From: Octopus vulgaris
Taxonomy: Eukaryota
Reading direction: 5' to 3'
Assembly: GCA_951406725.2 (NCBI GenBank)
Contig: OX597821.1
Coordinates: forward strand, 98,642,001-98,706,000
Length of the DNA: 64,000 nt
The position numbers and the translations under genes were made by a program. Every line of letters begins with the position of its first letter. The stretch's first letter is position 1. Below are positions 24,891 through 49,688 of this stretch, one piece after another. The notes below the pieces were generated by a model that worked only from the letters and a program-made list of their open reading frames with translations, ran no database searches and was not told where the DNA came from.

Positions 24891-24938
<48 letters not shown>

Positions 24939-24965
24939 GTGTGTGTATTTTGCCACATGTATGTG

Positions 24966-25360: not shown

Positions 25361-25393
25361 GTGTGTGTGTGTGTGTGTGTATATATACACATA

Positions 25394-26432
25394 CAGGGTA
25401 TTTGGGCTAAATTTGACAGTTTGTATGAAAAGTAAAGAAAACAATATCTCATCAAAAAATGAAAGCATTTTTAAAAAATCAAAAGAAATATCATTTGGAT
25501 TATGGTTGGAAGATAACAGTTTACTCAAAGTAACTGCCCCAGCTTCCACCATAGCCTCAAGGTAGCTATGGAATCTGGTGCATGCATTTCTCACTGTGTC
25601 CCTTTGAGCATCTCCTTGATGTTGCACCTCCTCACCAGCTTGGCCATGGTGTTGTAAGCAGAACAATTGGTGTCTTTCTCAACTGCACCCCACATATAGT
25701 AATCCATGGGAATATAATCAGGGGAATGAGGAGGCCAGAAATTGGGGTCAGTGAAGTCATAGAAATTCCCTGACAACCACTTCTGACTCTTCCTGGAAGT
25801 ATGGTAAAGATCTGAATCCTACTGCCACCAGCTCTGTTGCGTGACTAACCTCTTCCCTTCAATCAAAATTCATAATCTACGCACCTTTTATTCATAGCTA
25901 TATTTTACTTTATTCTATCTGAAGTTCAATTTTTCATGTTATCCGAAAGAACATCTTAAAAAGTACAAGTTAAAAATTCATTTAGGTCCATTACAAATAG
26001 TTTAATTCTCGTTCAACATCTTAACCAAAGTATATAGATGACTCATCTATGTTCTTTGATCTTGACATGGGACCCCTCAACCACGGAGGTGCTCTGTGAC
26101 TGCAGAGGTTGCAGGGGCTTAGCAACAGCCCTGGCTGCCACACATGGCCTTCTGGAGCAACCCTCTCCAGCTTGGGTTTGACCATAGGCAACAACAGTTT
26201 CACATAGTTGTCTGAATTGAACCTAAGGCCCTGTTCAAAAGTGCTGGGTGGAATGACATCACCCTCACTGTAGACACATGGCTTTTAGTCCTCCATGTGA
26301 GCAAACTTTTTCTCAGTCACAACCTTAGTTATTATGCTCTCCAATGCTGTTGGCTATTCAGCAATACATCTAGTTGTTCCTGAATAAAAAATGGAACCAT
26401 AAAAAATTGTCAAATTTAACCTGAATACCCTG
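25394..26432 (-). mobile_element. Mariner-like (DDD) deletion derivative
   Basis: TIRs CAGGGTATTTGGGCTAAATTTGACA / TGTCAAATTTAACCTGAATACCCTG; WPPHSPDYIPMDYYMWGAVE. Confidence 0.8.
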
Positions 26433-27831
26433 TGTGTATATGTAAGTATGTCTATATATGTGTATGCATATATATGCATGAATATATGTGTGTGTATGCA
26501 TAAATATGCATATATATGTATATGTGTGTGTAATTATAATGTATATATGTGTCTGTGTGTGTACATTAGATGTTGTCATGATAGTGAAATTAGGAATAAC
26601 TATTATAATGATGTTAATCACAATATAGTTAAATGTATAATAATAATAGTAACAATAATGTCGATAATATTAACTGTTGTATTGACTACATAGATTTTCC
26701 TACAATAACAATTATACTCATTCTATTTATGTAACATTTAGCAGTTCAAGCAGCCGAATCAGGCCCAAATATTCTACCTGTTTTTCTGTTCAGCCTCTCT
26801 CCCACCCTGAAAATAGACAGTCGCATCATTGACATCTCATAGCTACAAGGTGATGCACGATTAATTGAAAACAATGTGGATAAGTAAACATTACATTTGA
26901 CAAAGTAATCTGAATGTTAAAGGGGTAAAAGGGGCCTTCAAAACTCTATTCTTTGAAGTTACATGAGGTTTTATTATTAACTCTCTGATGGTCTGGACTA
27001 GATACAGAGCTGTACACATTATTCTCCCTGTAACTTACCTTCTTATGGTTTCAAGTTTTATCTGCTGGGAAAATAACTGTAGTTTTGAATTTCTTTTAGC
27101 CTGTTTTCCACTTCTTTGCCAGTGTTTAATTGTACCTGCTAATGGTTACTACTTTAAGTGATTGATGATTCTTTGACGATGCTCTACCTATACTTTTCTT
27201 ACCTTTAAACCCATAATCTTTGATGGTACCTGTCCGATTTATGCCTTGTATCCACTCTTCCCTTGATTCTTCAATAGTGCCATCCCATTTTCTTTTCTCT
27301 CTTTAACCCTTTCGTTACTGAATTTATTTTGAGATGCTCTGTGTTTCTTTCAGTTATTTTAACCCTTTAGTATTTAAACCGGCCATATCCGGCCAAAAGT
27401 ATTCGGCCTGTTCTATGTTCAAACTGGCCAGATCTTGTCTCTCATACCAACCCTACAATATCATTTTAAAAATTAACAGCTACCTCATCTTTGAGTATGG
27501 CTTCAAAAATCATATATTATGTACTGAATTCTAGATTCTTTGTATGCATTTTGCATGTGTGTGTGTGTACACACACAAGCACATGCATGCATATGCACAC
27601 TTGCAATCACACACACACATACACACACGCCTTTTCAACCTGTTTCAGTCATTGGATTGCAGCCATGCGAGGTCACTATCTTGAACTATTTCAGTTGAAC
27701 GAATTGACCTTAGTGCTTTTCTTATAAATCTCGGATACTGAACTAAGTTGCAGGGACATAAACAAACAGACATCAGTTTTACAAGTGGTGGTGTGTGGAA
27801 AGAATCACACAAACAAATACAAACACATCAT

Positions 27832-28572
27832 CATCATCATCATCGTTTAACGTCCGCTCTCCATGCTAGCATGGGTTGGACGGTTCGACCGGGGATCTGG
27901 GAAGCCAGAAGGCTGCACCAGGCTCCAGTCTTATCTGGCAATGTTTCTACAGCTGGATGCCCTTCCTAACGCCAACCACTCCGTGAGTGTAGTGGGTGCT
28001 TTTTACATGCCACCGGCACAGGTGCCAGGCGAGGCTGGCAACGGCCACGGTCGGATTGGTGCAATTTACGTGCCACCGGCACGGAAGCCAGTCGAGGCGG
28101 CGCTGGCATCGGCCACGATTCGGATAGTGCTTTTTACGTACCACCAGTCCAGGGGTCCTGGCATCTGCCGGGTGCCAGTCATAGGATTGGTTCAATTTCG
28201 ATTTCGATTTCACTTGCCCCAACATGTCTTCGCAAGCAAGGGGGTTGGCATGGGTGCCTGTCGTCGGATGAGGTTCGATATCGACTTCGCTTGCCTCAAC
28301 AGGTCTTTGTGTCCAAGGAGGAAAGGCATGCATAAGTGGGCTGGGCTCACTTGTCTTGCCTGGTCTTCTCACATACAGCATATTTCCAAAGGTCTCGGTC
28401 GCTGGTCATTTCCTCAGTGAGGCCTAAAGTTCGAAGGTCGTGCTTCACCACCTCGTCCCAGGTTTTCCTGGGTTTACCTCTTCCAGGGGTTCCCTCAACT
28501 GCTAGGGATTGGCACTTTCTCACACACCTATCTTCATTCATTCTCGCCACATGACCATACCAGCGCAATCGT
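27832..28572 (-). mobile_element. RTE-clade LINE 3' fragment with (GAT)n tail
   Basis: RWYGHVARM...GRGKPRKTW C-terminal motif; repeat-containing 3' UTR. Confidence 0.85.
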
Positions 28573-28573
28573 C

Positions 28574-28608
<35 letters not shown>

Positions 28609-28688
28609 ATATGTACAAAATATGGGGATTTAGTCCACAGGTGATCTAAATGACTAGGTACACTAGATAAGTGCTAGCCCTGGTAATA

Positions 28689-28731
<43 letters not shown>

Positions 28732-28895
28732 ATGCATATTAATGTATATTCTTTCATTCTTTTATTTGTTTCAGTCATTTGACTATGGCCATGCTGGAGC
28801 ACCACCTTTAGTCAAACAAATCAACCCCAGCACTTATTCTTCATAATCCTAGTACTTATACTATCAGTCTCTTATGCCAAACTACTAAGTTGTGG

Positions 28896-30070
28896 GGGCC
28901 AGTCAAGGCAGTGCTGGCATCGACGACGTACGGATGGTGCTTTTTACATGCCACCGGCACAGGTGCCAGGGTAGGCTGGCAACGGTCACAATTAGTGTGC
29001 TTTTTACATGCAACCGGCACAGAAGCCAGTCAAGGTGATGCTGGCATCGGCCACGTATGGATGGTGCATTTTACGTGCCTCCGGCACAGGTATCACAACT
29101 GCAGTTTCCATTTGATTTTTTGATGTTGATGGTGATGTACTTGACTCAATAGGTATCATCAAGCACAGCAGGTCGCCATACAATCCAATGTAAGTACAGC
29201 AGGCCGTCCTGCGATCCAAGGCACTTTGGAAGGGCTGAGGCTTCTATGTGAAGCTGGTGCAGGAAACAGCCATGAACTCACGTTATTTGTTGGGTCTTCA
29301 CAGTCACAGCATATCTCCAGAGGTCTCTGTCTTTCTTCATTGCCTTTGTGAGACACAGCATTTGAAGGTCATGCTTGACCACCTCATCCCATGTCTTCCT
29401 GGGTCTACCTCTACCCTGGATTCCTTCAACTGTTTCGGAGTGACACTTCTTCACACATCTCTCCTCATTCATCCGTAGTACATGACCATACCAGCACAGA
29501 TGTCTCTCTTGCACGCCACATCCAATGCTTCTTATGTCCAGCATTTTTCTCAGGGAACTTACACTTTGTCGTGTATGCACACTGACATTATACATCCAGC
29601 GGATCATGCTAGCTTCATTTCTTTCAAGCCTACGCATGTCCTCTGCAGTCACAGCTCATGTTTCTCTACCGTGAAGCATGGCAGTTCACACACATGCGTC
29701 GTACAATCTGCCTTTCACTCTGATTGAAAGATCCTTTGTCACCAGTAGGGGTAGGAGCTTTCTAAACTTTACCCAGGCTATTCTTATTCTAGTGGTAACA
29801 CTCTGAGCATCCACTCCCACTACTAACTTGGTCACCTAGGTAGCGGAAATTATCAACTACTTCTAGTTTCTCCCCCAGGAGTGTAATAGAATCTGTTTTC
29901 TGAGTATCAATGTTGTCTATTGCCCCTGTGCATCTGCCACTCACGAAAGCTATCTTCTTGGTTAATTTTCCTTTGATGTTGCCGCACCTCTTATGTGTCC
30001 ATAGCTTACACTGGGTACATCTTATGGAGTTTCTACCTACACCTTTTCTACAGATCAAGCAGGGCCACCT
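28896..30070 (-). mobile_element. RTE-clade LINE fragment
   Basis: Cys/His finger, FRYLGD, WYGHV and GRPRKTW motifs. Confidence 0.85.
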
Positions 30071-30350
30071 ATGTTTGGTAGACGGAAACTGAAAGAAGCC
30101 CGTCATATATATATATATATATATATATATTTATGTTTGTGTCTGTTTTGTGTCTCCTCACCCTTGCTTGACAACCAATGTTGGTGTGGTTATGCCCCCA
30201 CAACTTAGTGGTTCGGCATAAGAGACTGATAGTATAAGTACTAGGATTATAAAGAATAAGTGCTGGGGTTGATTTGTTTGACTAAAGCTGGTGCTCCAGC
30301 ATGGCCATAGTCAAATGACTGAAACAAATAAAAGAATGAAAGAATATACA

Positions 30351-30399
<49 letters not shown>

Positions 30400-30401
<2 letters not shown>

Positions 30402-32700
30402 TCATCATCATCGTTTAACGTCCACTTTCCATGCTAGCATTGGTTGGATGATTTGACTGGGGACTGGCGAACCAGATGGCTGCACTAGGCTCCAATCTTT
30501 ATCTGGCAGAGTTTCTACAGCTGGATGCCTTTCCTAACGCCAACAACTTCGAAAGTGTAGTGAGTGCTTTTCCATGCCACTGGCACAAGGGCCAGTCAGG
30601 CAGTACTGGCAACGTCCACATTCATGGTGCTTTTTACATGCCACCTGCACAGGAGCCAGTCCAGCAGCACTGGCAACGACCTCGCTCAAATGCTTTTTCA
30701 TGTGCTACAGGCACATGTGCCAGTAAGGCAATGCTGGCAACGATCACGCTCAAATGGAGCTTTTTACGTGTCACCGGCACAGAAGCCAGTTAGCCGCTCT
30801 GGCAATGATCATGCTCAGATAGTACTCTTAGTGTTCCACTAGCATGGATACCAGTCATCAAATTTGATTTCGATTTCACTTGCCTCAACAGATCTTCGCA
30901 AGCAGAGTTTAATATCCAATGAAGGAAAAGGTATGCATAAGTGGGCTGGCTACACCCCTGGCATAGGCCATGAGGTTATGGTCTCATTTGGCTTATCGGG
31001 TCTTCTCAAGCACAGCATATTTCCAAAAGTTTTGGTCACTAGTCATTGCCTCGGTGAGGCCTAATGTTCGAAGGTCGTGCTTCACCACTTCATCCCAGGT
31101 CTTTCTGGGTCTACCTCTTCCACAGGTTCCTTCAACCTCTTGAGTGTGGCACTTTTTCACACAGCTATCCTCATAGAATGGTCTTGCCACATGACCATAT
31201 TAGTGCAGTTGTCTCTCTTGCACACCACATCTGATGTTTCTTAGGTCCAACTTTTCTTTCAAGGTACTTACACTCTGTCGAGTATGCACACATTCATTGG
31301 ATCATACTGGCTTCATTCCTTGTGAGCTTACGCATGTCCTCATGGCCCATGTTTCACTGCCATGTTACATGGCTGTTCATACACATGCGTCATACAGTCT
31401 ACCTTTTACTCTGAGCAAGAGGCCCTTTGTCACTAGCAGAGGTAAGAGCTCTCTGAACTTAGCCCAGGCTATTCTTATCCTAGCAGCTACACTTTCAGTG
31501 CACCCTCCCTCATTACTGACTTGGTCACCTAGGTAACGGAAGCTAACAACAACTACATCTAGTTTTTCTACCTGGAATGTAGCAGAAGTTGTTCTCTGCA
31601 CATTTTCAGTGTTTATTGCTCCTGAGCATCTGCCACATACAAAAAATATCTTCCCAGTTAGCCTTCCTTTGATATTGCTGCACCTCTTATGTGTCCATAG
31701 CTTACACTGGGTACATCTTATATATTTCCTACCTACGCCTTTTCTACAGATCGATCAGAGCCATCTACCTGAAGGGATTTGTGGTTTGCCTGCCTTCCTA
31801 CTTATTAGGACTTTGGTTTTAGCTAGGTTGAATCTAAGGCCCTTCGATTCTAATCTTTGTTTCCACACCTGAAACTTCTCTAGTTCTGATAGTGACTCAG
31901 CAATTAGAGCAAGGTCATCAGCATAGAGGAGCTCCCAAGGGCATCCTGTCTGGAATTCCTCTGTTATTGCTTGGAGGACTATGACAAATAGGAGGAGTTT
32001 AAGGACTGAACCTTGGAGGGCCCCTACCTCTACCCGGAATTCTTCACTGTACTCATTGCCAACCCTCACCTTACTGACAGCGTCCCTCTACATGACTTGC
32101 ACAGCCATCACTAACCATTCGTCTATCCCTAGTTTTATCATTGACCACCAGATAAGGGATCGAAGGATCTTGTCAAAGGCTTTCTCCATGTCAACAAAAG
32201 CCATGTACAGAGGTTTATCTTTGGCTAGGTATTTCTACTGCAGCTGTCTTACCAGAAATATAGCATCAGTGGTGCTTTTCCCTTGCATGAACCCAAACTG
32301 CATCTCATCTAAACTGACTCTCTCCTTAATTAGTTGGGCTATGACCCTCTCTGTGACCTTCATTACCTGATCCAACAACTTGATACCTCTGTAATTATTT
32401 GTATCTAAAGCATCACCTTTACCTTTGTAGCAGTTGACTATAGTGCTGCTACACCAGTGATAACTTCGTGTATCACCTGGTTAACTATACGGGTGACTAG
32501 GCTTTAGCCATCACTGCCAGATATTTTGAGCATCTCTGCAGTGATTCCTGATGGGCCGGGGGCTTTCCCTGTCTTCATACTCTTAATTGCGTTATCTACC
32601 AAGGTACTGTCAACTCGGATAGCTGGTCCCGCCAATGGGTCAACATTCGGCAGACTCTCTTTCTTCCGTTCATTTTCTTTATTCAGCAACCTTTCATACG
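30400..32700 (-). mobile_element. RTE-clade LINE, 5'-truncated and decayed
   Basis: GKAPGPSG, ELLYADDLALIAE, FRYLGD and GRPRKTW motifs; (GAT)n tail. Confidence 0.9.
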
Positions 32701-32829
32701 CTCTAAGGAATAGAGTCTTAATCTCTTGAGTCTTTCCCAATAGCTTATATGCTACATAGAGTCTATCTTCTTCGTGTAGCTTTGTTGGATTGCCTCAAGT
32801 TCTGAGATTAATTTGACACTGGTTGGTGA

Positions 32830-34060
32830 CTATAGCTGAGAGCAATAGTCAAAGTGGCTTAGGACAAGTGTCCTCCAGAGGACCATCATGGTTTTCTGGT
32901 CTCTTGTTCGAAAGGTTCTAAAAATCCATCTGGTCAGCCACCTACATTTCATTGCCAATTTAGTAACATGCACATGAAAGGTTGCATCATTACTCATGTA
33001 AATGCCCAGGTCTCGCACTGATTGTGCCTCTGGGATTGCAATCCCTCCAAGTCCAGTGCATTTATTGGGTATTGCATTTAGTTTTGCATGCTGATAGAAA
33101 GCTTGAAACTTTTCAGCATTGAACTGCATGCTATTCTTTTCAGCCCGCTTGTATATTTCGTCCAGTTCACGTTGCAGGTGCATAGTGTCTTCAGGGTTCT
33201 GTATTACCTGTGAAACTTTTGTATCATCTGCATAACTTGTGATCGTGGCTCTCTGTGTGGCTGAGGGCATGTCTGAGAAGGCCATTATGAACAGTAGTGG
33301 TCCCAAAACAGTGTCTTGCTGAACACTGCTCACTATTTGCGTGTCATTGGAGGTGGCCCCTTTGGCTACTACCACCTGACTTCTATCCTTCAGAAAGTCA
33401 TGAAGCCATTCTCCCAATTTTCCAACTATGCCAAGATCATTCAGTTTGTGACATATCATTCCATGATTGACTTTTTCAAGGGCTGTTGCAAAGTCAAGAT
33501 AAATCACTTCCACATTTGAGTGGTTGAGCAGTTGTTTCAGCACTCAGTCATTGTGTTGTAAGAGCTGAGTTAGGCAGCTTCTTCCTGGTTGGAAACCACG
33601 TTGGGTGTCAGGCAGCAAGTCACTTTCTTCAAGGAAGGCGATTAGTTTTCTTCTGACTATACGTTCCATGACCTTGCTGATGTGTGAGGTCAGAGAGATA
33701 AGGCCAGTTTTGTTTGAGGATCTCTTTCTCAATTTGTTTCCAGTTTGCCTTATGGAAGTTCAAGCTGGAGAGCTTCTGAGAGTTTCTTGTAGGCTGCAGT
33801 CCATGCTTTCCTTTGGCCCGTACATGGTCAGCTCTACCATGTTGTGATCCGAGGTAGCGTCGGTGTCACTTTCACATTATGGATGAGATCTATATTATTT
33901 GTGAAGCAGAGATCCAGTATGTTTCCTGCCCTGGTTAGTTGGTGTACTGTTTGCTCCATGTACAAAGTGTTGATGAGGTTCAGAAGGGACATCACCTGTC
34001 CTTGTTCATATCGTATCATTCCTGGGAGAGAAAGGCCTTCAGGCCATCTGACATTGGGCA
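32830..34060 (-). mobile_element. CR1/L2-group LINE RT fragment
   Basis: QRGFQPGRSCLTQLL, VIYLDF, LGPLLFI, SYADDTK, VRDLGI motifs. Confidence 0.85.
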
Positions 34061-34064
34061 GATT

Positions 34065-34690
34065 TGTTCATAATTTTTACTTTTTACATTCTATTTTTAT
34101 TTTTATTATATTACCTTATTAATTTTTTCGTATTTTTATTTGTATTTTTTATTCGTAATTTTTATATGGATTTATTCACATGTTTTTCATTTGTATTTTT
34201 TAGCCGGTTTTCATATCTGTTTTTATTCCTTAAATTTTTATGTCTTAAATTTATAAGGTTCATGAATTTATTTGTTTACTTATTTATATTTATATACTTG
34301 GAATAAATTTTGACAAGCATAGTGATATATAAGGGGTATATATTTATAAATGTGGGGAAAGTAGACCTGATGATTGGGAGTGTGTAAACATAATGAGTTT
34401 TTGAATGAAACTTTGTGTCTTAACAATACCATACGTACCCTCATGAAACATGTGTAGTCCGTAATAGGGAAAATCTTTGGATTATGAATAGAAATAGTAA
34501 GTATAATATTCAATAATTTATGGCTTGGTTGAGTTAATACTTTTCGGAGTTGATGAAGTTGTAGGTGTTTCTATCTCTAACGCTATTTTGATATATAAGA
34601 ATTAATCATTGAGAGCAATTCAATTTAATATTTTTAATTTGAATGTCTCATTTCTGTGGCACTGGAATTGATCTTCCCTAATTATTATAA
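34065..34690 (-). mobile_element. Decayed Penelope-like GIY-YIG-region remnant
   Basis: Translation piece ...RMVLLRHKVSFKN... resembles the PLE endonuclease R-x3-H-x2-SF motif; heavily degenerate. Confidence 0.35.
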
Positions 34691-34718
34691 TAATATGTAT
34701 ATATATATATGTATATAC

Positions 34719-34944
34719 TTTATTTAAAAGCAGCAGAAATTCAACAAAACCTGTTACTCAGAGTTTCACGTTCCTGTTCGTCGGACAGTTTTGTTAACAA
34801 AACTGTCTGACGAACGGGAATGTGAAACTCCGAGTAACAGGTTTTGTTGAATTTCTGCTGCTTTTAAATAAAGCATATTACTCTACCCCTGGTATTTGAG
34901 TACTCTTTTTTCCACCTTGTTTCACATTTATGTGTTTACTCCGG
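34719..34944. mobile_element. Palindromic Penelope-type terminal remnant with two opposing minimal hammerheads (34751-34788 -, 34803-34840 +)
   Basis: + arm CTGT-CTGACGA-ACG GGAA TGT-GAAA-CTCCGAG-TA-ACAG; inverted mirror arm; same family as 24671-24890. Confidence 0.7.
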
Positions 34945-35056
34945 TATATATATGTATATATATATATGTATATTTGTATATGTATGTATATCTATGTATG
35001 TCTATATATATGTATGCATATATATATGTATATATATGTATATATATATATCAATA

Positions 35057-35096
<40 letters not shown>

Positions 35097-35099
<3 letters not shown>

Positions 35100-36370
35100 T
35101 GGGGGGAAATAAATATTCGTACATGTCAAAATTCTTTATTTAATTTCTAATGAACATAAATGGGATATACCAATACTATATTTGCATACACATGCATAAA
35201 CTAAGAATATGCAAAAGAAACTAATAAATTATAGTAACTAAGGAATTTATATTCAATTATAAATATTTAGGGGTGAAAAAAGTATTCGTACACAACATAA
35301 ATAACTGATAATTCTGATTTAATACATCGTAGCATAACCATTATTCAGTTCCACTTCAACCAATCTATTCTTGTAGTTCTTGATCAATGACTCGCAGGAA
35401 TTTTTTCCCATTCTTCTTGACAAATTTTCTTCAAATCTGCAATGCACGTAGGGGCTCTTGAATGAATTTTAAATTTCAAATAATGCCACAAATTTTCAAT
35501 GGGGTTCAAGTCAGGTGACAGGCTTGGCCATTCTAATAATTTTATATTGTGATCGACAATCCATTTTTTGGTAAACTTCGTCGCGTGCTTAGGATTGTTA
35601 TCCTGTTGTAAAACCCAACCTTCACAAAGCTGGAGCTTTTCTACAGAGTCCCATAAATCATTGTTCAAAATATTTTGGTACATCTCTGCATTCATTCTAC
35701 CATCTATCACATGTAAATTACCAGTACCATTTGCAGAGAAACACCCCCACACCATGATGTTGCCACCTCCAAACTTTACGGTAGGAATTGTGCTTTTCGG
35801 CATGGCTATGCAAATTTCGTCCAAACAATTCAATTTTCGACTTGTCTGTCCATAGAACATTTTCCCAGAATGTATCAGATTTATCTTTATGTTCATAAAC
35901 AAATTTTAAATGGGCATCTCTATGCCTTTTAGTCAACAGCAGAGTTTTTCTAGGCGAGCGTTATTTCAGTTCATTTCTATGAAGTTCATTGCTGATTGTT
36001 CGTAGTGTAACTTAGTCCCTGAAGCTAACAAATCTTCTTGCAACTCCTTTCTGGTGATCATTGTGTTTTTTCCGATTCTTTGCTCATTTTTCTTAAAGAT
36101 CTAGGGGAAATCATGCATGGTGCACCGGATCTTATTCTGTTTTCAACAGATCCCGATTTTGAATAAATGAAGATATGGTAGAAAATGGAATACAAAGGGT
36201 CTCTGATATTTTCCTGTAACTTTTACCTGCTTTCCACTGTTCAATAATTAAGTTTTTCATTGAATTTGTGAGTTCCTTACTTTTCCCCATTATTACGATG
36301 CTACTTTATGTTGTCTCAATGCTGAATGAAGAAGCTAGCGTTTTGACACTTAAAAATGACAACTGATAAG
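35097..36370 (-). mobile_element. Tc1-family transposon, decayed transposase
   Basis: WTDKSKIE, TVKFGGGNIMVWGCF, QQDNNPKH, WPSLSPDLNPIENLW (DDE); TA|CAGTGGGGG terminus with internal direct repeat near 35277. Confidence 0.9.
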
Positions 36371-36389
36371 ATTATTGGCACAAACGAGA

Positions 36390-36830
36390 AAGTTTATTCC
36401 AATAGAATCCAGGAACAAATTCTGCAGGCCATGTCAACTTTGCAGCTTATATGTGTAGCCCAACTTATGTTGTTGTCCACAGTTACTCCCAAGTCTCTAA
36501 TGTTGTTAGATGCCATGAGAATTTCACCAGAAGGAAGGGAGTATTGCATCTCATAACAATACGGCAAAATTATTTCACCTCAATTGGACCCGCCCTCTTC
36601 AACATTACACCAGGTAACATCAAAACAGAAACTGACCACACGAAATTTAAGAAGTCTTTGGACAAATTCCTTCAAACAGTCCTGGACAGACCACCCACAC
36701 CCGGATATGTCTCTGCAAACAATAACTTTCTGCTCAAATGGGCCTTGGTGCCCAAATCCTGAATTGAAAGACTTCGCCAGGTGATGCTATTAAGTTAGAC
36801 ATGGCCTGGGCCAACACTGGCCAAGACCTT
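36390..36830. mobile_element. CR1-group LINE 3' fragment with probable 5' inversion
   Basis: Plus strand GPALFNITP..FKKSLDKFL..DRPPTPGY; the preceding 36390-36520 reads as RT motif 7 on the minus strand. Confidence 0.55.
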
Positions 36831-36839
36831 TCTAAGTTA

Positions 36840-37677
<838 letters not shown>

Positions 37678-37678
<1 letters not shown>

Positions 37679-37922
37679 CATCATCATCATCGTTTAACAT
37701 CCACTTTCCATGCTAGCATGGGTTGGACGTTTTGACTGAGGACTGGTGAACCAGATGGCTGCACCAGACTCCAATCTGATCTGGCAGAGTTTCTACAGCT
37801 GGATGCCCTTCCTAACGCCAACCACTCCAAGAGTGTAGTGGGTGCTTTTACGTGCCACGAGGGCCAGTCTGGTGGTACTGGCAACAGCCATGCTGAAATG
37901 ATACTGTTTATGTGCCACCTGC
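37678..37922 (-). mobile_element. RTE 3' UTR fragment
   Basis: catcatcgtttaacatccactttccatgctagcatgggttgg... shared with other copies. Confidence 0.75.
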
Positions 37923-37947
37923 ACACACACACACATATATATATATA

Positions 37948-38233
37948 TCTGTAAAATAATATGTGACAATTATTCAATAGCTAAGATAAAACTCTGAGTT
38001 TCGGATGCTGAGGTGGAAATCCACAACACCATCTCTTCGGTTGTCTTGCCATCTGGTTTTTCAGATGGCCAGATAACCAAAGAGACGGTGTTGTGGATTT
38101 CCACCTCAGCATCCAAAATACAGAGTTTTATCTTGGCTACCGAATAATTGTAACGTATTATTTTACAGATAAATTTCCTCTATTTATATAGTATTGAGGT
38201 CTCTTTCTTTCTTTTGTTATCTTACCGTTTTTA

Positions 38234-38237
<4 letters not shown>
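37948..38237. mobile_element. Second copy of the 4612-4900 palindromic hammerhead-bearing element
   Basis: Near-identical sequence; the minus-arm motif is intact and the plus arm is mutated (CCAAAGA, CAAAA). Confidence 0.65.
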
Positions 38238-38269
<32 letters not shown>

Positions 38270-38282
38270 TGTATATATATAT

Positions 38283-38670
38283 ATTAGAAATATTGAATTT
38301 CTAAATGTCTCATAGAGACATGAGCGGTGGTGGAGCGATAGAGTGGTTGTATAATGTCAACATAGCGTGATGGTCCCGTAAAGGGAATTACACCACTGCT
38401 ATATAGCACTAGGAAGCATCGACGCTTCCTGTCGGCTTTGACACATTTCCTGTGTCCTTATATGTGCAAAGGGGGAGGCAAGCACCCCCACCAGCTAAGA
38501 CTAGCAACCTGAAGACATGCATGTTTCTGTGTCTTGCCCGTCATCAGCACAGAGTAGTGAGTCCCGCTAGCGGTGATACCTGCGAAGCCTCTGCAAATAT
38601 ATATATTTACAGTGAAATCTATTCACTGGTCACAGTAATTAGAAATATTGAATTTCTAAATGTCTCATAG
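38283..38670 (-). mobile_element. Retrozyme-like element: 355-bp structured monomer plus 33-bp terminal direct repeat, with a hammerhead motif at 38507-38552
   Basis: Identical 33-mers at 38283-38315 and 38638-38670; minus strand CTGATGA-CGGGCAAGACACA-GAAA-CATGCATG-TC; many internal hairpins. Confidence 0.75.
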
Positions 38671-38775
38671 CATAGAAAATGGACGTTAATAGAAGGGTAA
38701 AATTTATAAATTAAATTAATTAATTAATTAATAAATTAATTAATTAATTAATTAATTAATTAATATATATGTGTG

Positions 38776-38815
<40 letters not shown>

Positions 38816-38829
38816 TACATATATATCGA

Positions 38830-39474
38830 GATTCTTAGAGTAGCAGAAAAGGAATTTTAACTCCTATTTCTAAATTCGGTATGTGGTGAAGCAATTAACT
38901 AAACTCTAATTATAATTATGTGAATAATTTTACCTATAAAGGTTATTTTAACGTACCAATCTACTTGGTAAAATTATTAATTAATTGATTAATTAATTAA
39001 TTTGATTAATAAATTTTACCCTTCTATTATTAATTTAGAATTATAATTTACTCCATGGTAGAATACTGCAGTTTTCTGCAGTATTGCTCATAGCATACAT
39101 GTGGGTAAAGAGTTTGAATAGTGTATTCACATTCGGGTCTGTAAATTTTGGAAGTGTTGGTTGGATATCTGTTGCATGATGACACTCAATTGTGTGCATA
39201 TTCAGCCCTAGCACTTTCAAATTTTATTTAAAAAACTGGAAATATTATACTGAAGAGAGAAGTAAGTAAAATTTAAATCGCTTTAATCTCGAAACGCATA
39301 TATAATTAATCCTGGTCATGTTGATTCATTGTTTTTCTCTTTGCCTTCATAAAAAAGTATCTTTACTGTCATAGAGGTTCTTATAGTAGCAGAAAAGGAA
39401 TTTTAACTCCTATTTCTAAATTTGGTATGTGGTGAAGCAGTTAGCTGAACCCTAATTATATTTATGTGTATATA

Positions 39475-39526
<52 letters not shown>

Positions 39527-41075
39527 AAATCAATCAATGTGAGTCCATAATTCATGATGAATCCCTGAAGAGGATGAAAGCACTCTTTCTCCAAATTTTG
39601 ACTTTTTGTTAAAATGTAAAATTTTACCCCACTATAAACAATCCATATACAGGGTGTGATAGGTAAATTTATAGTTGACCTCACTACCTCCATCCAGTAC
39701 ATTACCTTTATTTTTGTTATCAATTTCATGTGTGATAAGATAACTTGATGTTCCAACTTATTCTTGTTACTATATTTATTCAATTGATGCCTATTAGAAC
39801 AAGGTTTAAATAAAGAAGTAGTAACCCAGTTGTAGGTATCTACATTATTATTGGTAGTAAGGAACAAATTTTTCAATATACTATGGCTAATAGCAACAAT
39901 ATTGTCTAAGTTAGTGGAATAGGAAAGGTTGATGGTATGTTTATTGAAAATATTCCTATATTAACAAGAATGGGTGAAATTATATTCTAAAGCTCTGAAA
40001 AATATTTTTGGTTTTTGAGAAATTAAATTTGCTGCATAAGGAAGATCATACCACAATATCTTTCATATATAGTTTATTATTACCATTTTTAGGTTGGGTA
40101 TTCAAAGTGCTGTTGATGTTAGTGTTGGTATAGTTATGGTATTTGTCAGGATGTTTCTCCACTCAATCCAATTGGGAATTCTCATGAGATGATTTCTTAT
40201 TAGAAGGTTTATTCATATTAGAGGTATGTAGGCTATGTAAATCCTTACTTTTTACAACATTCTTAGAATTATTAGACTTCATCATCATCATCGTTTAATG
40301 TCCGCCTTTCATGCTGGTATGGATTGGATGGTTTGACAGGAGCCTGCACCAGATTTCTGTGTCTGTTTTGGCATGGTTTTTGCTGCTGGATGCCCTTCCT
40401 AACATCAATGATCCAGTAGAGTGGACAGTGCTTTTTATGTAGCATAAGCACAGGCAAGGTCAGTTATGGCAAGGTTTTTACAGCTGGATAATCTTCCAAA
40501 TGCCAACCACTTTACAGTGTGGACTGGATGCTTTTTATGTGGCATCAGCACTGGCAGGCTCACCAAGTAACTTGCAAGACAAAAATCCTTTGAGAGGGGA
40601 GGGGCCATTGATTTTTAGTTGTATGTTTATAGTAGTGTAGTCGTTAGCTTAATTCTTTATTTTGTTTCTGGTTTCATACATTTAATTGTAATCATGTACA
40701 TTGGTTTTAGTAAGTTATCATTGTCAAGATATATCTTATTTTTTCTTTATATATTCAGGTTTACTTAGTACCTTGACATAGTAAATTGCACACTCTAAAA
40801 ATTTCCATACAAGCCAACAATTTAGATATTCTAGTTAAAATACCTTTAATAATAAAACTAATTATAGTTTTAGGGTGATTGGAAAGTGTATTGATGTAAT
40901 TCTTGTTTGTGAAATAGATATAAAAGACTAATATTCAATTCTAATGTGTCAACTAGTGTAAGATTGTTCCCTATTGAAAACAAAAGACCAAAATTCTTAA
41001 AAATTTTTCTTAATTTCTTTCTAATTCCTTCTATTTCTAAGTTACTACTGTTGCTAAGTCTGTCCTGAAATCTGA
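38830..41075 (-). mobile_element. Decayed Penelope-like element (RT thumb and C-terminal remnants, duplicated terminal segment), interrupted by an RTE 3' fragment at about 40277-40590
   Basis: ORF piece EIEGIRKKLRKIFKNFGLLFSIGNNLTLVDTLELN resembles the PLE RT region after YRDD; 38833-38915 is duplicated at 39380-39460. Confidence 0.6.
39244..39306 (+). ncRNA. Type I hammerhead ribozyme motif, canonical core
   Basis: ATTATA-CTGAAGA-GAGA[26-nt loop]TCTC-GAAA-CGCA-TA-TATAAT: 6-bp stem I and 4-bp stem II. Confidence 0.7.
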
Positions 41076-41092
41076 ACCTATTTTCTTTATAG

Positions 41093-41143
41093 CATTCAGA
41101 AAGAATTGGCTGAGATAACTCTGGATCCACCACCCAACTGCAG
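41093..41143 (+). CDS. UBE2E: UBE2E 51-bp coding exon (R-IQKELAEITLDPPPNC-S), not shown in the ORF track
   Basis: ttttctttatag|C ATT CAG AAA GAA TTG GCT GAG ATA ACT CTG GAT CCA CCA CCC AAC TGC AG|gtaaac; phases match both neighbouring exons. Confidence 0.97.
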
Positions 41144-41726
41144 GTAAACTGGAAGCTGTTAAATTTTTTCTTAATTTAAAAAAACTTTGATTCAATAAGA
41201 AAAATCCAAAATTAGAACCTGTGTTTTATGAAATAGTATCTGACAGTAAACATCATCCATATTATGTCCATCAGCATGTGATGTTTACTTATAATTGTGA
41301 TATATTATACATGTGCCCCAGCATGGCCACAGCTCATGAGCTGAAACTAGAATCAATCAATCAATCATACATATGCATGTGTTTGTGTGTGTGTATATGC
41401 TCAGACATGACTGTGCAGTGAGAAGTCCCCCCCCCCCCCAATCACATATTTTCAGGTTCAGTCCCACTGTGTGGTACCTTGGACAAGCATCTTCTATTAT
41501 AGCCTTAGGTTGACTAAAACCTTGTGAGTGGATTCGGTAGACAGAAAGTGAAAGAAGCCTGGCATATTTATATATATATATGTATATTTTCTCCTAAAAT
41601 ATATAAAGGTTTTTCAACTCATCTCTGCTTTGTTAGAAGCTTTCCTTTTCATTTATTATCCTACTTCCATACACACACATGTATATATGTATACATAATG
41701 TGTATATATATATATATATATATATA

Positions 41727-41925
41727 AAGTTAATCCAAACATGAAAACACAAAGAGAAAACACAACAACGCGAGGACGTGGAACAAATATAGTATTATTG
41801 GACGCTCAGGAAGGAAGGGAAGAAGGAGGGTTTAACATTTCGAGCGGAGCTCTTCGTCAGAAACATAGAAGGGAAGACAGAGGGAAAAAAATCGCCAACG
41901 GTACACACGCGGTCACATTTTGAAT
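41727..41925 (-). mobile_element. Penelope-type terminal remnant with minimal hammerhead (41830-41864)
   Basis: Minus strand GTTT-CTGACGA-A-GAGC TCC GCTC-GAAA-TG-TT-AAAC. Confidence 0.6.
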
Positions 41926-42995
41926 ATATATATATTTATCTACCTATTTATCTTGAATAGCTAAAAGTGTCAAAAAAGTGAGAGATGAGAGGATGTCAAG
42001 CTGTTAGGGTCACAGCAATAGTAGAATGATAGAGGGTGACAGGGAAGTAGGTAATAAAAGGATATCTATGCATGGATATACATTTTATGTCCATCCATCT
42101 ACCTGTCTTTTCTTCCTTCCCCTCTTCCTCCCTACCTTATAGGTGTAGCTGTGTGGTAAGGAATTTGCTTCCAACCAAAGGATTCTGGGTTCAGTTGCTC
42201 TGTGTGGCACTAAGTATCTTCTACTATAGCCTTGCACTGACCAGAGCCTTGTAAGTAGATTTGGTACATGGAAACTGAAAGGAATCTGTTGTGTATACAG
42301 GGAAACACGCATTTACACATGTTTTGTTGATGTCAAAAATTTTGAAAGTTTGAAGTAATTCCTTTTAAGGAACAGTGGATCTTGAAGCAAATAGGCTGTA
42401 AATAACATCATATAATTTCTAAACTTTTTCTTTCCAAATGGTTTTTAATCCAGTATTTACAAGCTGTTATTTATAGTTTTATTTGCTTTGGGATTCACCA
42501 TGCCTAAAAAAAGAATGTGTGTGTGTGTGTGTGTGTGTGTGTTGCTGTTCGCTTGCCCTGGCTTCACATGATAGTTTTAAATGAGTGTCAGTGTCATACA
42601 AGTGGTGGACTTCATTTCCAATCTTCTATGAAAACACTTCTGGTCATGGAGAAATATTACTTTCTTTGGAAACAGGCAAGGGTTGATGATAGGAGGGGGG
42701 CATCTAGCTGTAAGAAATCCACCTCAACAAATTGCATCTGATCCATACAAGCATAGAAAAGTGGATGTTAAAACAATGATGATGATGATGATGATGATGA
42801 TGGTGGTAGTGTGTGTGTGTGTGTGTATAAATATATATACCATAGAAACCATGCCAAAGCAGACAGCAGAGCCTGGAGCAGCTCGCTCACTTGCCAGCTC
42901 TTGTCAAACCATCCAACCCATGCTAGCATAGAAGATGAATGTTAAATGATACTGATGGTGATAGATATTTACACACATACATACACACACACACA

Positions 42996-43040
<45 letters not shown>

Positions 43041-43356
43041 ACATACACACACACACATATTGTGTGTGTGTGTCTGTTAGAATAATTGTATATAGGAAAA
43101 TCTAACATCATTAAAAACTCCAGCATAACTAGAATTTGAATATATATATTCATGATTGACTAGTACTTACAAGTGAATAATGTCATGTCATCATAGTATC
43201 AGTATAAAAAATGGTTACTGTTGAAGTTTTTGTAGTGTTTAGCTTCTAAATTTGAAGACTTTTGCAACCAGTGAATGGTGTAATTACGCAACATTTTAGG
43301 CTTAGCATTATCATATAAATAGGAAAGATTATTGTGGTGTGTATATATATATGTAT

Positions 43357-45625
43357 CATCATTTAACATCCGTTTTCCATGCTAGCATGGGTCAGACGGT
43401 TTTGACTGAGGGCTGGCAACCAGATGGTTGCACCAGGCTCCAGTCTTGATCTGGCAGAGTTTCTACAGCTGGATGCCCTTCCTAACGCCAACCACTCTGA
43501 GAGTGTAGTGAGTGCTTTTTACGTTCCACCTGCACGGGGGCCAGTCAGGCGGTACTGGCAATGACCTCGCTCGAATCTTTTTACACATGCCCACTGGCAC
43601 AGGTGCCAGTGAAGCGGCGTTGGTAATGATCACACTCGAATGGTGCCCTTTTACGTGCCACGGGTACAGAAGCCAGTTGGCTGCTCTGGCAACGATCATA
43701 CTCGGATGGTGTTCTTGGCACCCTACTAGCACAGGCATAAGTGCCAGTAAGGCGACGCTGGTAACGATCATACTCGAAAAGCCGCTCTGTCAACGATCAC
43801 ACTCGTATGGTGCTCTTTGCACCCCACTAGCACGGATGCCAGTCATCGAAGTGATTTTGATTTTGATTTGATTTGATTCACTTGCCTCAACAGGTCTTTG
43901 CAAGCAAAGTTTAGTGACCAAAGAAGGCAAAGCTATTCATAAGCGGGCTGGTTATGCTCCTGCCATAGGCCACGAGTTATGGTTTCATCTGGCTTGCCGG
44001 GTCTTCTCGAGCACAGTATATTTCCAAAGGTCTCGGTCGCTAGTCATTTCCTTGGTGAGGCCTACTGTTCGATGGTCATACTTCACCACTTCATCCCAGG
44101 TCTTCCTGGGTCTGCCTCTTCCACAGGTTCCCTCAACGACTAGGGTGTGGCACTTTTTCACACAACTATCCTCATCCATTCTCACCACATGACCATACCA
44201 GCGCAGTTGTCTCTCTTGCACACCACATCTAATGCTTCTTAGGTCCAACTTTTCTCTCAAGGTACTTGCACTCTGTTGAGTATGCACACTGACATTACAC
44301 ATCCATCAGATCATACTGGCTTCATTCCTTGCGAGCTTACGCATGTCCTCAGCACTCATGGCCCATGTTTCACTGCCATGTAGCATGGCTGTTCGTACAC
44401 ATGTATCATACAGTTTACCTTTTACTCTGAACGAGAGGCCCTTTGTCACCAGCAGAGGTAAGAGCTCTCTGAACTTTGCCCAAGCTATTCTTATCCTAGC
44501 AGCTACACTTTCAGTGCACCCTCCTCCACTACTGATTTGGTCACCTAGATAACGGAAGCTATCAACTACTTCTAGTTTTTCTCCCTGGAATGTGACGGAA
44601 GTTGTTCTCTGCACATTTCCAGTGTTTATCACTCCCGAGCATCTGCCACATATAAAAACTATCTTCCCAGTTAGCCTTCCTTTGATATTACTGCACCTCT
44701 TATGTGTCCATAGCTTACACTGGGTACATCTTATAGAGTTTCTATCTACACCTTTTCTACAGATCGAGCAGGGCCATCTACCTGAAGGGATTTTTGGTTT
44801 GCCTGCCTTCCTACTTATTAGGACTTTGGTTTTAGCTAGGTTGATTCTAAGGCCCTTCGATTCTAATCCTTGCTTCCACACTTGAAACTTTTCCTCTAGT
44901 TCTGATAGCAACTCAGCGATTAGTGCAAGGTCATCAGCATAGAGGAGCTCCCAGGGGCATCCTGTCTGGAATTCCTCTGTTATTGCCTGGAGGACTATGA
45001 TACATAGGAGGGGGCTGAGGACTGAACCCTGGTGGACCCCAACCTCTACCTTGAATTCTTCAGTGTACTCGTTGCCAACTCTTACCTTACTAGCAGCGTC
45101 CTTGTACATGGCTTGCACAGCTCTCACTAACCATTCATCTATCCCTAGATTCCTCATTCACCACCAGATAAGGAATCGGGGGACTCTGTCAAAAGCTTTT
45201 CCATGTCAACGAAAGCCAGGTACAGGGGCTTATCTTTGGCCAGATATTTCTCCTGCAGCTGTCATACCAGAAATATGGCATCAGTGGTGCTTTTCCCTGG
45301 CACGAAACCAAACTGCATCTCATCCAAGTTGACTCTCCCTAATAATTTGGGCTATGACCCTCTCCGTAACCTTCATTACCTGATCCAACAGCTTGATACC
45401 TCCGTAATTATTTGTATCTAGGGCGTCACCTTTACCTTTGTAGCAGTTAACTATTATGCTGCTACCTCAGTCATTGGGTATGACTCCTTTGTGTATCACC
45501 TGGTTAACTGTACGGGTGACTAGGCTATAGCCGACACTACCAGATATTTTGAGCATCTCTGCATTAATTCCTGATGGGCCTGGGACTTTCCCTGTCTTCA
45601 TGCTTCTAATTGCCTTGACTACCTG
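43357..45625 (-). mobile_element. RTE-clade LINE, 5'-truncated (283-aa ORF piece 44306-45157)
   Basis: GVHQGSVLSPLL, YADD, GLRINLAKTK, Cys/His finger, FRYLGD. Confidence 0.92.
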
Positions 45626-46009
45626 ACTATATATATATGTTAAAACATATATATATATATATACACATAGACTTGATTTCATATTAAAATATTGGAATAA
45701 ACAAGTTCAAATTGTGATTCAGAGCAAAAAAGAACTGGAAAATTCAAAATAGTTGAAAATATATAACTAAAGAAAGTATGATAGTAGATACTTTTTAAAT
45801 CAAAAACTATATTCAAAGACTTTACAGTTTTTTTTTTCAGAGACAGATAAGTGCTGAACTCCTCAAAATATTTTAACAAGATAATTCCAAATTTGGATGA
45901 GTAAATAACTATGTTAGCAATTCTATCTTAAATAATTTATACTTTTTACATGTCATGATTGAATTTCTAATGATTAAGGTGAGAAATTACTGTTAGAGAA
46001 TTATGATGA

Positions 46010-46210
<201 letters not shown>

Positions 46211-46369
46211 TGAATATAATTCATCTTAATATCAGGAAATCTGATGAACATTTTATCCAATGAGACGATGATAACAACAGCAACATATATGAAATTGAAC
46301 AAAATATACCACCTTATAGCTTATGTTTTTTTTCTCCTTCAAAAATGGACCGTCAACATCAGTTGCATA

Positions 46370-46409
<40 letters not shown>

Positions 46410-46412
<3 letters not shown>

Positions 46413-46926
46413 GACGAGGTGGTGAAGCACGACCTTCGAACATTAGGGCTCACCGAGGAAATGACTAGTGACCGAGACCTTTGGAAGTATGCTGTGCGTG
46501 AGAAGACCTGGCAGGACAAGTGAGACCATAACCCGTGGCCTCTACCTGGGATGTAGCCAGTCCACTTATGCATACCTTTCCTTCTTGGGACACAAAACTC
46601 TACTTGTGAAAACCTGTTGAGGCAAGTGAGAATCAAAATCGAAATTGATCAACATCAATGGAAATTGTAGTTGTGATACCAGTGCCGGTGGCACGTAAGA
46701 GAGCCATCTGAACATGGCCGTTGCCAGCGCAGCCCCAACTGGCCTCCATGCCGGTGGCACGTAAAAAGCACCCACTACACTCATGGAGTTGTTGGCATTA
46801 GGAAGGGCATCAAGCTGTAGAAACACTGCCAGATCAGACTGGAGCCTGGTGCAGCCTTCTGGCTTCCCAGACTCCAGTTGAACCGTCCAACCCATGCTAG
46901 CATGGAAAGTGGACGTTAAACGATGA

Positions 46927-46930
<4 letters not shown>
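46410..46930 (+). mobile_element. RTE-clade LINE 3' fragment (sense)
   Basis: WDEVVKHDLRTLGL... followed by the 3' UTR and GAT tail. Confidence 0.85.
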
Positions 46931-46961
<31 letters not shown>

Positions 46962-46999
46962 TGTGTGTGTATATATATATATATATATAGATGTATATA

Positions 47000-48368
47000 T
47001 CATCATCATCATCATCGTTTAACGTCCGCTTTCCATGCTTGCATGTGTTAGACGATTTGACTGAGGACTGGCGAACCAGATGGCTGCACCAGGTTCCAAT
47101 CTTGATCTGGCAGAGTTCTACAGTTGGATGCCCTTCCTAACGCCAACCACTCTGAGAGTGTAGTGGGTACTTTTACGTGCCACCTGCACAGGAGCCTGTC
47201 CAGCGGCACTAGCAATGACCTCACTCGAATGTTTTTTCATGTGCCACCAGCACCAAGTGCCAGTAAGGCGACGCAGGTAATGATTACGCTCGAATGGTGC
47301 TTTTTACGTGCCATCGGCATGGCGGCCAGCTTGTTGCTCTGGCAACGATCACACTCGTATGGTACTCTTAGCACTCCACTAGCACGGATGTCCTTCATTG
47401 AATTTGATTTCGATTTCACTTGCCTCAACAGGTCTTCACAAGCAGAGTTTAGTGTCCAATGAAGGAAAAGTATGCATAAGTGGGCTGGTTATACCCGAGG
47501 CATAGGCCACAAGGTTACGGTCTCACTTGAGCTTGCCGAGTCTTCTTGAGCACAGCATATATCTAAAGGTCCCAGTCACCAGTCATTGCCTCGGTGAGGC
47601 CTAATGTTCGAACGTCATGCTTCACCACCTCATCCCAGGTCTTTCTGGGTCTACCTCTTCCACAGGTTCCCTCAACCGCTAGGGTGTGGCACTTTTTCAC
47701 ACAGCTATCCACATCTATTCTTGCCACATGGCCATACCAGCGCAATTGTCTCTCTTGCACACCGCATCAGATGCTTCTTAGGTCCAACATTTCTCTCAAG
47801 GTACTTACACTCTGTCGAGTATGCACACTGACATTTCACATACATCAGAGCATACTGGCTTTATTCCTTGCGAGCTTACCCATGTCCTCAACAGTCACGG
47901 CCCATGTTTCACTGCCATGTAGCATGGCTGTTCGTACACATGCGTCATACAGTCTACCTTTTACTCTGAGCGAGAGGCCCTTTGTTACCAGCAGAGGTAA
48001 GAGCTCTCTGAACTTTGCCCAAGCTATTCTTATCCTAGCAGCTACACTTTCAGTGCACCCTCCTCTGCTCCTGATTTGGTCACCTAGGTAACGGAAGCTA
48101 TCAACTACTTCTAGTTTTTCTCCCTGGAATGTGGCAGAAGTTGTTCTCTGCGCATTTTCAGTGTTTATCGCTCCCGAGCATCTGCCACATACAAAAACTA
48201 TCTTCCCAGTTAGCCTTCCTTTGATATTGCTGCACCTCTTGTGTGTCTATAGCTTACACTGGGTACATCTTAAAGATTTTCTACCTACACCTCCACTACA
48301 GATCGAGCAGGGCCATCTACCTGAAGGGATTTGTAGTTTGCTTGCCTTCCTACTTATTAGGACTTTGA
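47000..48368 (-). mobile_element. RTE-clade LINE 3' fragment
   Basis: Closely matches the 3' part of the 43357-45625 copy. Confidence 0.88.
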
Positions 48369-49391
48369 TTCTAATCCTTGTTTCCACCTTTTCTACCTAT
48401 CACAATGGAGCACCATTGACATTACATAGTGATATGGATTTTCCTGATGGAAAAAATGTTATGAAATGGATAATCTTGATTGTTTGTTATTGTTTTTGTC
48501 ACTAGACACAGTTTTAAGTTTGTCGTACTGTTTATGCCAATTTCGAATATTGGCTTCATTAACATTAAAATGCCTTCTGGCATCTCTATTGCCATGTTCA
48601 AATGCATATTCAACATATTTAATTTCACCTTCACAGTAAACGATTCATAAGTTCTGCCTATACTGACAATAATGGTAATGACAAATTTTAAAGTTTGCTT
48701 GACATTTTATAAGTGTGAAAGGGATTAAAATTTCGATACTCTATATCAAAGAATTGGCAGAAAAGCATTCTGTTTACATAATCAGTTTGATCGGTCACCT
48801 CCCTCTGTCGGTTGAGTAAAGTGTCATCCAAGCTGATGTTTATTGGTAATTAAACTTAATTTGCAACACCTGTGCATATTTATCAGCTTTGTTTTTGTTG
48901 GTAATTCTTATCAACAACTTTTCTTGTGATTGTGATTTGAGAAGACATACAGAAGTATGCTAAAGATCGGAGATAATCCCTTGTGGGCAAGAAATGTAAA
49001 ATAAAGTTTATGATAAACAACACAAACCACTTTGTAATTTAATAGTTTTCAATGTGATACCTGTTAAATAGAAATTATTTTTATTCAATGAAAATTTAAT
49101 AAAATCTAATCATAAGGAAGTGAAATTATGCTAAATATAACTAAATTGAAAAGCTTTTTCCCTTGACTATATCGGCAATTCTGAAAACTTATGGGTGTGA
49201 ATTTTACGTGAGTAGAAGCTTTTTTTTTAACAAATTTTATCCTGAAAATAACCTGTGTAAATTACACCAGTGCACAAATTTCATAGGTTCTTATAAAGTA
49301 TACATGAATACAAATAAATGAAAATAAAAATAAAAGTTACTCCAGAAATTATCCATTTTCATTTACTTTGCAAAATGATTTATTTAATTAA

Positions 49392-49688
<297 letters not shown>

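Follow-up and report, generated by a model that had tools for sequence, protein, structure and literature searches.

A hammerhead retrozyme family of Octopus vulgaris whose insertions carry Penelope-like ends

How animal retrozymes return to DNA is an open question, and Penelope-like elements (PLEs) have been proposed as their helpers from shared ribozymes, co-occurrence and homology to pLTRs. A short repeat in the genome of Octopus vulgaris, found within a stretch of 64,000 nucleotides (hereafter the window, numbered from its first letter), raises this question anew: it occupies 38283..38670 on the minus strand, contains a hammerhead motif and, at 388 nt, amounts to 1.09 copies of a 355-nt unit. 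What is it, and how was it inserted? Here we report that it belongs to a real, hitherto undescribed family of cephalopod non-LTR retrozymes, family A. We consider it probable that this 1.09-unit dispersed hammerhead repeat was inserted by the reverse transcriptase (RT) and GIY-YIG activities of a PLE, with a circular RNA of unit length as the likely template. The original prediction recognised a multi-copy unit and a hammerhead that does covary; it missed the Penelope-type insertion signature and an ORF1-only passenger.

In the sense of the ribozyme, the window copy has its 3' end at 38283 and a truncated 5' end at 38670. One full unit (38283..38637, minus strand) is joined to the 33-nt start of a second turn (38638..38670, minus strand), at whose far side lies the truncation point, and 38283-38315 and 38638-38670 form the exact 33-bp direct repeat that first drew attention to the locus, at a spacing of 355. 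No target-site duplication (TSD) was seen at the ends of this copy, and the fixed end abuts a (TA)n target (38237..38282). The unit has no LTR, PBS or PPT, and it is non-coding, with no ORF, and of retrozyme size, as had been proposed. The hairpin arms named at the outset are all present, but GGGGG/CCCCC and CCGCTAGCGG are, on the ribozyme strand, arms of one long rod and not local hairpins; CACCACTGCT begins at 38391 and pairs with AGCGGTGGTG with one non-Watson-Crick position. The placement in a UBE2E intron was also correct. The last coding exon of the plus-strand host gene (23798..49688) has its best match in UBE2E1/2/3 (E 3e-48) and, judged by the splice sites, the element lies within intron 1 (24070-41092), downstream of a putative coding exon 1 at about 23798-24069 and upstream of plus-strand coding exons at 41093-41143, 46042-46174 and 49437-49688. 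Since the splice sites place the host gene on the plus strand, the ribozyme strand is antisense to UBE2E. The window copy is decayed and probably dead: because its single ribozyme is damaged and it is antisense to UBE2E, neither circles nor cleavage of the host pre-mRNA should be expected from it, and a lone copy in an intron matters little to UBE2E.

The type I hammerhead lies at 38508..38553 on the minus strand and has the elements first described for it, namely CTGATGA (38547-38541), GAAA (38527-38524), a GUC triplet with C17 at 38514, and hence a predicted cut between 38514 and 38513; stem III is, as stated then, the perfect palindrome ACATGCATGT (38524-38515). The core CUGANGA...GAAA...NUH is intact. 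Stem I (38553-38548 / 38513-38508) contains a U.U mismatch and stem II (38539-38537 / 38531-38529) a G.A mismatch, which leaves five of six and two of three pairs, respectively, in line with the damage reported originally. Rfam hammerhead models, suggested as a check, returned no match at the window copy at the gathering threshold or at E<=10. Despite the broken pairs of this copy, the expectation that stems I and II are paired in the family was borne out by their covariation across copies. Among 52 hammerheads, hand-chosen from the core-pattern matches in the sampled loci, so that core invariance is by construction and the counts are of sequences rather than events, 72 cells had changed on both sides against 15.6 +/- 4.6 after shuffling (0/500); slid controls fell far below the real score, and compensatory pairs were found at 5/6 positions of stem I and 2/3 of stem II. 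Stem III is invariant within each family, the palindrome being ACATGCATGT in family A and ACTGCAGT in the related family B. The closing pair of stem II, 10.1-11.1, is non-canonical in 41 of the 52; according to the available part of PMC7229834, the axolotl ribozyme HHR_Amex2 has a similarly weak stem II base, with a U.U mismatch at that position, and cleaves. Intact cores were present in 77 of 104 arms covering the motif, 45 of them with full stems I and II as well, figures inflated by 30 loci that had been chosen for an intact core. An older subfamily of family A has a CCGATGA core (U4 to C) with compensated stems (L104, L128, L160, L167 and L281), and the core of family C, CTGCATTGA, has a two-base insertion.

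The unit is strongly structured on the ribozyme strand, with z = -4.79 for the linear fold (0/100 shuffles as stable) compared with -2.18 for the opposite strand. The circular fold, which had been recommended, gave z = -5.5; of 22 GC-matched windows taken from the 64-kb window, one was lower and two more reached -4.6 and -4.2. The predicted fold is branched with one long rod (38462..38601, minus strand), and because the rod pairs both sides of the cut, the two ends of a doubly cut monomer would lie side by side. 'Viroid-like' was thus a fair term for the fold but for nothing beyond it, as the ribozyme is on one polarity only and the family is integrated. The predicted energy of the active fold is +5.7 kcal/mol in the window copy versus -6.7 to -7.8 kcal/mol in four intact copies, and in 5/5 copies tested the active fold was not the predicted minimum-energy fold.

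The anticipated dispersed, many-copy family was readily found: 68 matches came from the 40 scored of 2478 first-look candidates, and exact patterns gave 205 intact-core matches and 969 matches to one 20-mer, with 0 for reversed controls. The sole named relative of a protein associated with the family is a UniRef entry from Octopus bimaculoides. The unit at 38283..38637 is 87-94% identical to 29 other best-hit loci, and the copies fall into old subfamilies nested within one another, with about 95% identity to the majority outside the diagnostic sites. Family B (354 nt, 3892 candidates) has the same architecture with different stems I and III, and the period of 353-357 nt is kept across A and B despite their sequence divergence; a family C exists alongside them. 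No long arrays were seen among the first 100 places listed per exact-pattern search, and L003, the one dimer among the top matches, has units 91.8% identical. At L142 (3660-4401), what seems to be one insertion combines a 2.1-unit family A dimer with an inverted fragment plus the 3' half of a PLE. Contigs with 85-99% likeness to family A carry three different organism labels (runs X12, X18 and X20; organisms B and C), and contigs of four runs guessed to be RNA and three of unrecorded kind have the same uneven profile on L028, which is uninformative on circles.

The suggestion that this family was uncharacterised agrees with the available parts of the literature on octopus and cephalopod retrozymes, hammerheads and Penelope, which contain no description of it; the supplement of PMC7229834 may list cephalopods, and the family A repeat may be catalogued, unnamed, in Repbase or Dfam. 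For the giant squid genome, the accessible portion of the report lists 235 hammerhead-1 matches without analysis (PMC6962438). As far as they are described in the available text of Cervera and de la Pena (2020, PMC7229834), metazoan non-LTR retrozymes resemble the octopus family in being non-coding units of about 350 nt (350-390 bp in mussel, 330/350 bp in axolotl) with a type I hammerhead, a short palindromic stem III and a strongly self-paired fold, in genomes where PLEs coexist. Unlike them, the octopus copies are mostly dispersed, 5'-truncated pieces of less than one or of one to two units and not arrays, have two mapped fixed 3' ends, and in some cases carry a 1.7-kb protein-coding passenger.

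Insertion ends were mapped at 65 loci, being 70 of the first 100 listed matches to the 20-mer (of 969) minus five duplicates; these gave 99 arms, 96 of them at least 40 nt long. The 20-mer (unit positions 128-147) is outside the ribozyme, and very short arms are under-counted. In the ribozyme sense, 87 of the 96 arms ended on the 3' side at either of two fixed sites separated by 55 nt, 39 at unit positions 1-8 (38283..38290, minus strand, the end of a 55-nt tail and putative RT start site 1) and 48 at positions 46-68 (38328..38350, minus strand, mode 38338, putative RT start site 2), with 9 elsewhere. The short site is an AC-rich stretch, unpaired in the predicted fold. The 5' ends were scattered, and only 1/96 lay 5 nt or less from the cut site. 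The terminal redundancy is indeed unrelated to the cleavage site; random circular permutation, which had also been expected, did not appear, since one end is fixed at two sites and the other end alone varies. Family B has the same two fixed 3' ends with variable 5' ends. Among the 89 arms that start at position <=68, 38 read through the cut site, 15 continue beyond the unit junction in a head-to-tail join and 13 are longer than one unit. Two cut sites are spanned by 1 of the 89 and by the dimer L003, and by nothing at the window locus, a scarcity implying that circle-producing masters are rare. In the first mapping, both orientations were present at 26/65 loci, such that inverted arms are common, and TA repeats flanked 26/77 fixed ends compared with 72/3185 control 20-mers (about 2%). 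An apparent pile-up of 5' ends at unit position 181 was dismissed, as it largely vanished with multi-subfamily queries. Redundant parts of the same locus had diagnostic bases in common at 370/423 sites for tandem and 441/509 for inverted arrangements, versus 57% and 53% between loci. Each insertion therefore stems from the RNA of one subfamily, a result equally compatible with a circle and with a homogeneous dimer; raw identity within loci (83-100%) was no better than to the best other locus, and the diagnostic-site test alone was used for this reason.

Internal fixed 3' ends, scattered 5' ends and inverted arms are the PLE footprint of an internal RT start. For a lizard PLE, in vitro work has demonstrated reverse transcription from two internal sites that bound the tail, nicking of AT-rich DNA and synthesis on either nicked strand (PMC11167929). 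EN+ PLEs of the Neptune type share with the octopus family, in the available parts of PMC8557442, PMC11167929 and PMC4209133, partial tandems, an inverted 5' arm or copy, a bias to (TA)n targets, an optional 3' tail between two start sites of which the short one is AC-rich, and a type I hammerhead located 5' to the start sites; both minimal hammerheads and cleavage by dimers have been described for PLEs as well (PMC4209133). The octopus unit differs from them in having no RT/EN ORF, its long forms encoding ORF1 only, in a tail of 55 nt versus the 30-40 nt described in those parts, and in having no sequence match to the PLEs sampled in its own genome. Possible helpers exist nonetheless: intact RT+GIY-YIG ORFs occur in the genome, and PLE 3' ends also abut (TA)n. 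Many near-identical, intact RT+GIY-YIG ORFs of 781 aa were seen (L091, L092, L093 and L094; G000 C16, C17 and C2), and this PLE family is recently active and a candidate helper. A search for the cognate autonomous PLE gave no DNA match of the unit to 42 PLE loci (from the top 150 of 6136 GIY-YIG candidates). By eye the unit tail resembled a PLE tail, a likeness we discarded since shuffled sequences came as close to two autonomous PLE tails as the unit tail did (p 0.55 and 0.94). Units adjoin PLE ORF pieces at L142 and at L177/L220, joins that may be chimeras or shared targets; L177/L220 was also considered as a PLE ending in a unit homolog and rejected, the join being inside the ORF at about residue 686. 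The 3' ends of the PLE family L222-L251 have a hammerhead-like motif with ATGAATA for CTGANGA (an A3-U8 swap) and a palindromic ACCGGT stem III. A broken PLE RT with 35-66% identity to the 781-aa family is located in the window itself (7890-9324, plus strand).

These features suggest a route by which the family may spread. Rare two-ribozyme loci would be transcribed and the RNA cut twice, probably as ribozyme dimers formed through the palindromic stem III, after which the monomer ends would meet in the rod and, if the retrozymes of mussel and axolotl are a guide, be ligated. A competing helix between CUGAUGAC and GUCUUCAG is predicted to hold the ribozyme in an inactive fold. A PLE protein would nick (TA)n DNA and prime reverse transcription at either internal RNA site, 176 or 231 nt 3' of the cut; synthesis would run round the template until random fall-off, in the window copy once round plus 33 nt, and extension of both nicked strands could yield the inverted arms. 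As the 33-mer begins a second turn, the RNA that was copied was either circular or a multimer left uncleaved. It was not a linear monomer released by cleavage, because RT begins 176/231 nt 3' of the cut and frequently continues past it.

Which of these two templates was used is harder to say. An uncleaved tandem transcript explains the 1.09 turns at the window locus equally well; a circle explains copies longer than one unit while two-unit sources are rare, and an uncut dimer is also possible. We regard as improbable, but worth serious consideration, an account with the same family and PLE helper in which the template is a linear uncleaved tandem transcript, the element being a mini-PLE whose hammerhead is maintained but secondary and in which circles are uninvolved. 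It accords with the read-through of the cut site in 38/89 arms, with the predicted off-fold and with the diagnostic bases common to parts of a locus, which fit a homogeneous dimer as well as a circle. In the lizard PLE, according to the available portion of PMC11167929, insertion in vitro did not require the ribozyme and the template was mainly uncut RNA; eight of nine Xenopus dimers were without cleavage in the accessible part of 10.64898/2026.07.22.740005. Yet inward copying of a linear template only shortens, and 13/89 arms exceed one unit although two-unit loci are rare; moreover, the rod is predicted to pair the two sides of the cut, and the 353-357 nt period has been kept across the diverged families A and B.

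A PLE-inserted retrozyme, probably copied from a circle, also has to be set against readings that deny the unit a life of its own or a retrotransposed origin. We give little credence to the units being mere truncated pLTR ends of an unfound autonomous PLE, even though Xenopus retrozymes resemble pLTRs in the available part of the same report (10.64898/2026.07.22.740005) and two loci (L142 and L177/L220) have units fused to pieces of PLE ORFs: arms passing the unit end re-enter unit sequence (15/89), the long segment common to unit breaks is an ORF1-only module and not RT, and the two PLE joins are mid-ORF or inverted, that is, insertions or chimeras. An endogenised viroid-like agent replicating from RNA to RNA is less probable again. 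Hammerhead viroids have a similar size, a branched fold with a rod and a ribozyme, and the unit resembles them in each respect, but its ribozyme is on one polarity only and the age and nesting of its subfamilies, with about 95% identity to the majority, are as for a vertically inherited retroposon. We attach next to no likelihood to the 33-mer being a TSD or a short LTR around a SINE- or MITE-like insert. The exact direct repeat at both ends invites that reading, which is refuted by the presence of the 33-mer within the family sequence of other copies and by a duplicated length varying from 21 to over 280 nt (21-288 nt and more among the 30 best copies), as the original prediction had held.

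Several unit copies break near unit position 290 into a common 1.7-kb segment with 13,703 first-look candidates. The protein encoded by this module (443-460 aa) contains a CCHC knuckle, for which the Pfam match is below cut-off (E about 0.002), and ZCCHC3-like RNA-binding features (atlas match at 0.90); its structure model is weak (mean pLDDT 58.5), and a PDB sequence search with the protein gave knuckle-level matches only. The module has no RT and ends in AATAAA. The labels Neptune, ZCCHC3-as-ORF1 and tRNA-SINE are in part presumptive. TSDs of 13-17 bp at non-retrozyme sites, and a 3' tail common to an abundant SINE (19,065 exact matches; 30/30 inspected SINE-like), identify the module as an independent HAL1-like element. 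We considered whether the segment is an intron, or the body that a parent element lost by deletion, and rejected both because this module also occurs, with TSDs, at unrelated places and builds its own arrays. HAL1 (half-L1), in the available part of PMC5753468, likewise has ORF1 only, an AATAAA end and TSDs; unlike HAL1, the octopus module clusters immediately 5' to retrozyme ribozymes and also in arrays arranged head to tail, and it is HAL1-like by layout. A search for the parent LINE through the 3' tail returned only SINE copies (30/30), we found no ORF2-bearing relative, and literature searches yielded no account of an ORF1-only element that targets retrozymes. Head-to-tail module arrays with a 1.8-kb period were seen at L180, L183, L185, L190 and L196, some of them mixing subfamilies (33-90% protein identity), with 5' leaders that contain remnants of earlier targets. 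The L191 module has many A-to-G changes relative to that of L190 (Lys/Arg and Asn/Gly shifts in the protein), possibly from ADAR hyper-editing of the RNA before insertion. At L344-L373, a SINE-like repeat of about 235 nt has the module 3' tail, is often self-inserted and also forms 184-nt tandem runs.

The module recurs beside the ribozyme. Among its best 30 matches, 27 lie within retrozyme units of families A, B or C, a fraction raised by a query taken from a family A locus and by PLE spread of composite units; in 29 distinct linkers its AATAAA is 20-38 nt before the ribozyme core. The corresponding insertion zone is empty in the window copy (38562..38580, minus strand) and may mark a transcription start, with a TATA-like box about 25-35 nt upstream as the putative promoter (38598..38605, minus strand). 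TSDs were obtained at 26/75 loci, five of which were set aside (mis-match to upstream unit or module); of the remaining 21, 17 had a TATA-like word 24-36 nt upstream versus 5-8% background, or 4/6 by independent target type. These sequence patterns are a hint of module insertion at transcription starts and of a promoter inside the unit, for which the sole mapped Penelope promoter, TATA-less in the available part of PMC2377424, offers no support. At two non-retrozyme targets of the module, hammerhead-like motifs and (TA)n follow. We judge the chances to be about even that this ORF1-only module homes to an internal promoter just before the ribozyme. It is distinctly doubtful that the whole forms a three-tier stack, in which PLEs would move hammerhead circles, an ORF1-only retroposon would home to their internal promoter, and the resulting ribozyme-flanked units of about 2 kb would possibly be protein-coding circles; a protein-coding circle is unlikely because the module's AATAAA stands just before the second ribozyme.

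The retrozyme is flanked in the window by two separate repeats. To its left, a PLE-type piece (37943..38236, plus strand; 1778 first-look candidates for the family) is palindromic, with inverted arms of which one has a 65-nt tail, and contains a minimal-hammerhead-like motif, GATAA CCGAAGA ... GAAA CTCAGAGTT TTATC; in its family the 3' end was fixed on (TA)n at 20/20 loci. To its right lies a tandem/inverted repeat family of 546 nt (38687..39472, minus strand; 2667 first-look candidates), in which no canonical hammerhead was found. Its main arm is on the minus strand (38825-39472), and a short inverted piece (38687-38760) lies beside the retrozyme, 5' end to 5' end across a gap of 16 nt, a layout resembling a two-armed PLE insertion with arms of different families.

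In summary, the octopus family carries the footprint of the PLE mechanism itself, together with exact candidate RNA start sites. For Xenopus retrozymes the same PLE helper has been proposed and many monomers are described; that case rests, in the available part of 10.64898/2026.07.22.740005, on co-occurrence and pLTR homology, whereas the octopus case rests on the insertion-end footprint, pLTR homology having not been found. Our data add cephalopods to the map of retrozymes and reveal an ORF1-only element that has repeatedly landed beside a ribozyme. If the three-tier stack were true, the units spread by PLEs could be circular RNAs encoding an RNA-binding, Gag-like protein, and a genome layout like that of deltaviruses or Obelisks would have arisen inside an animal genome.
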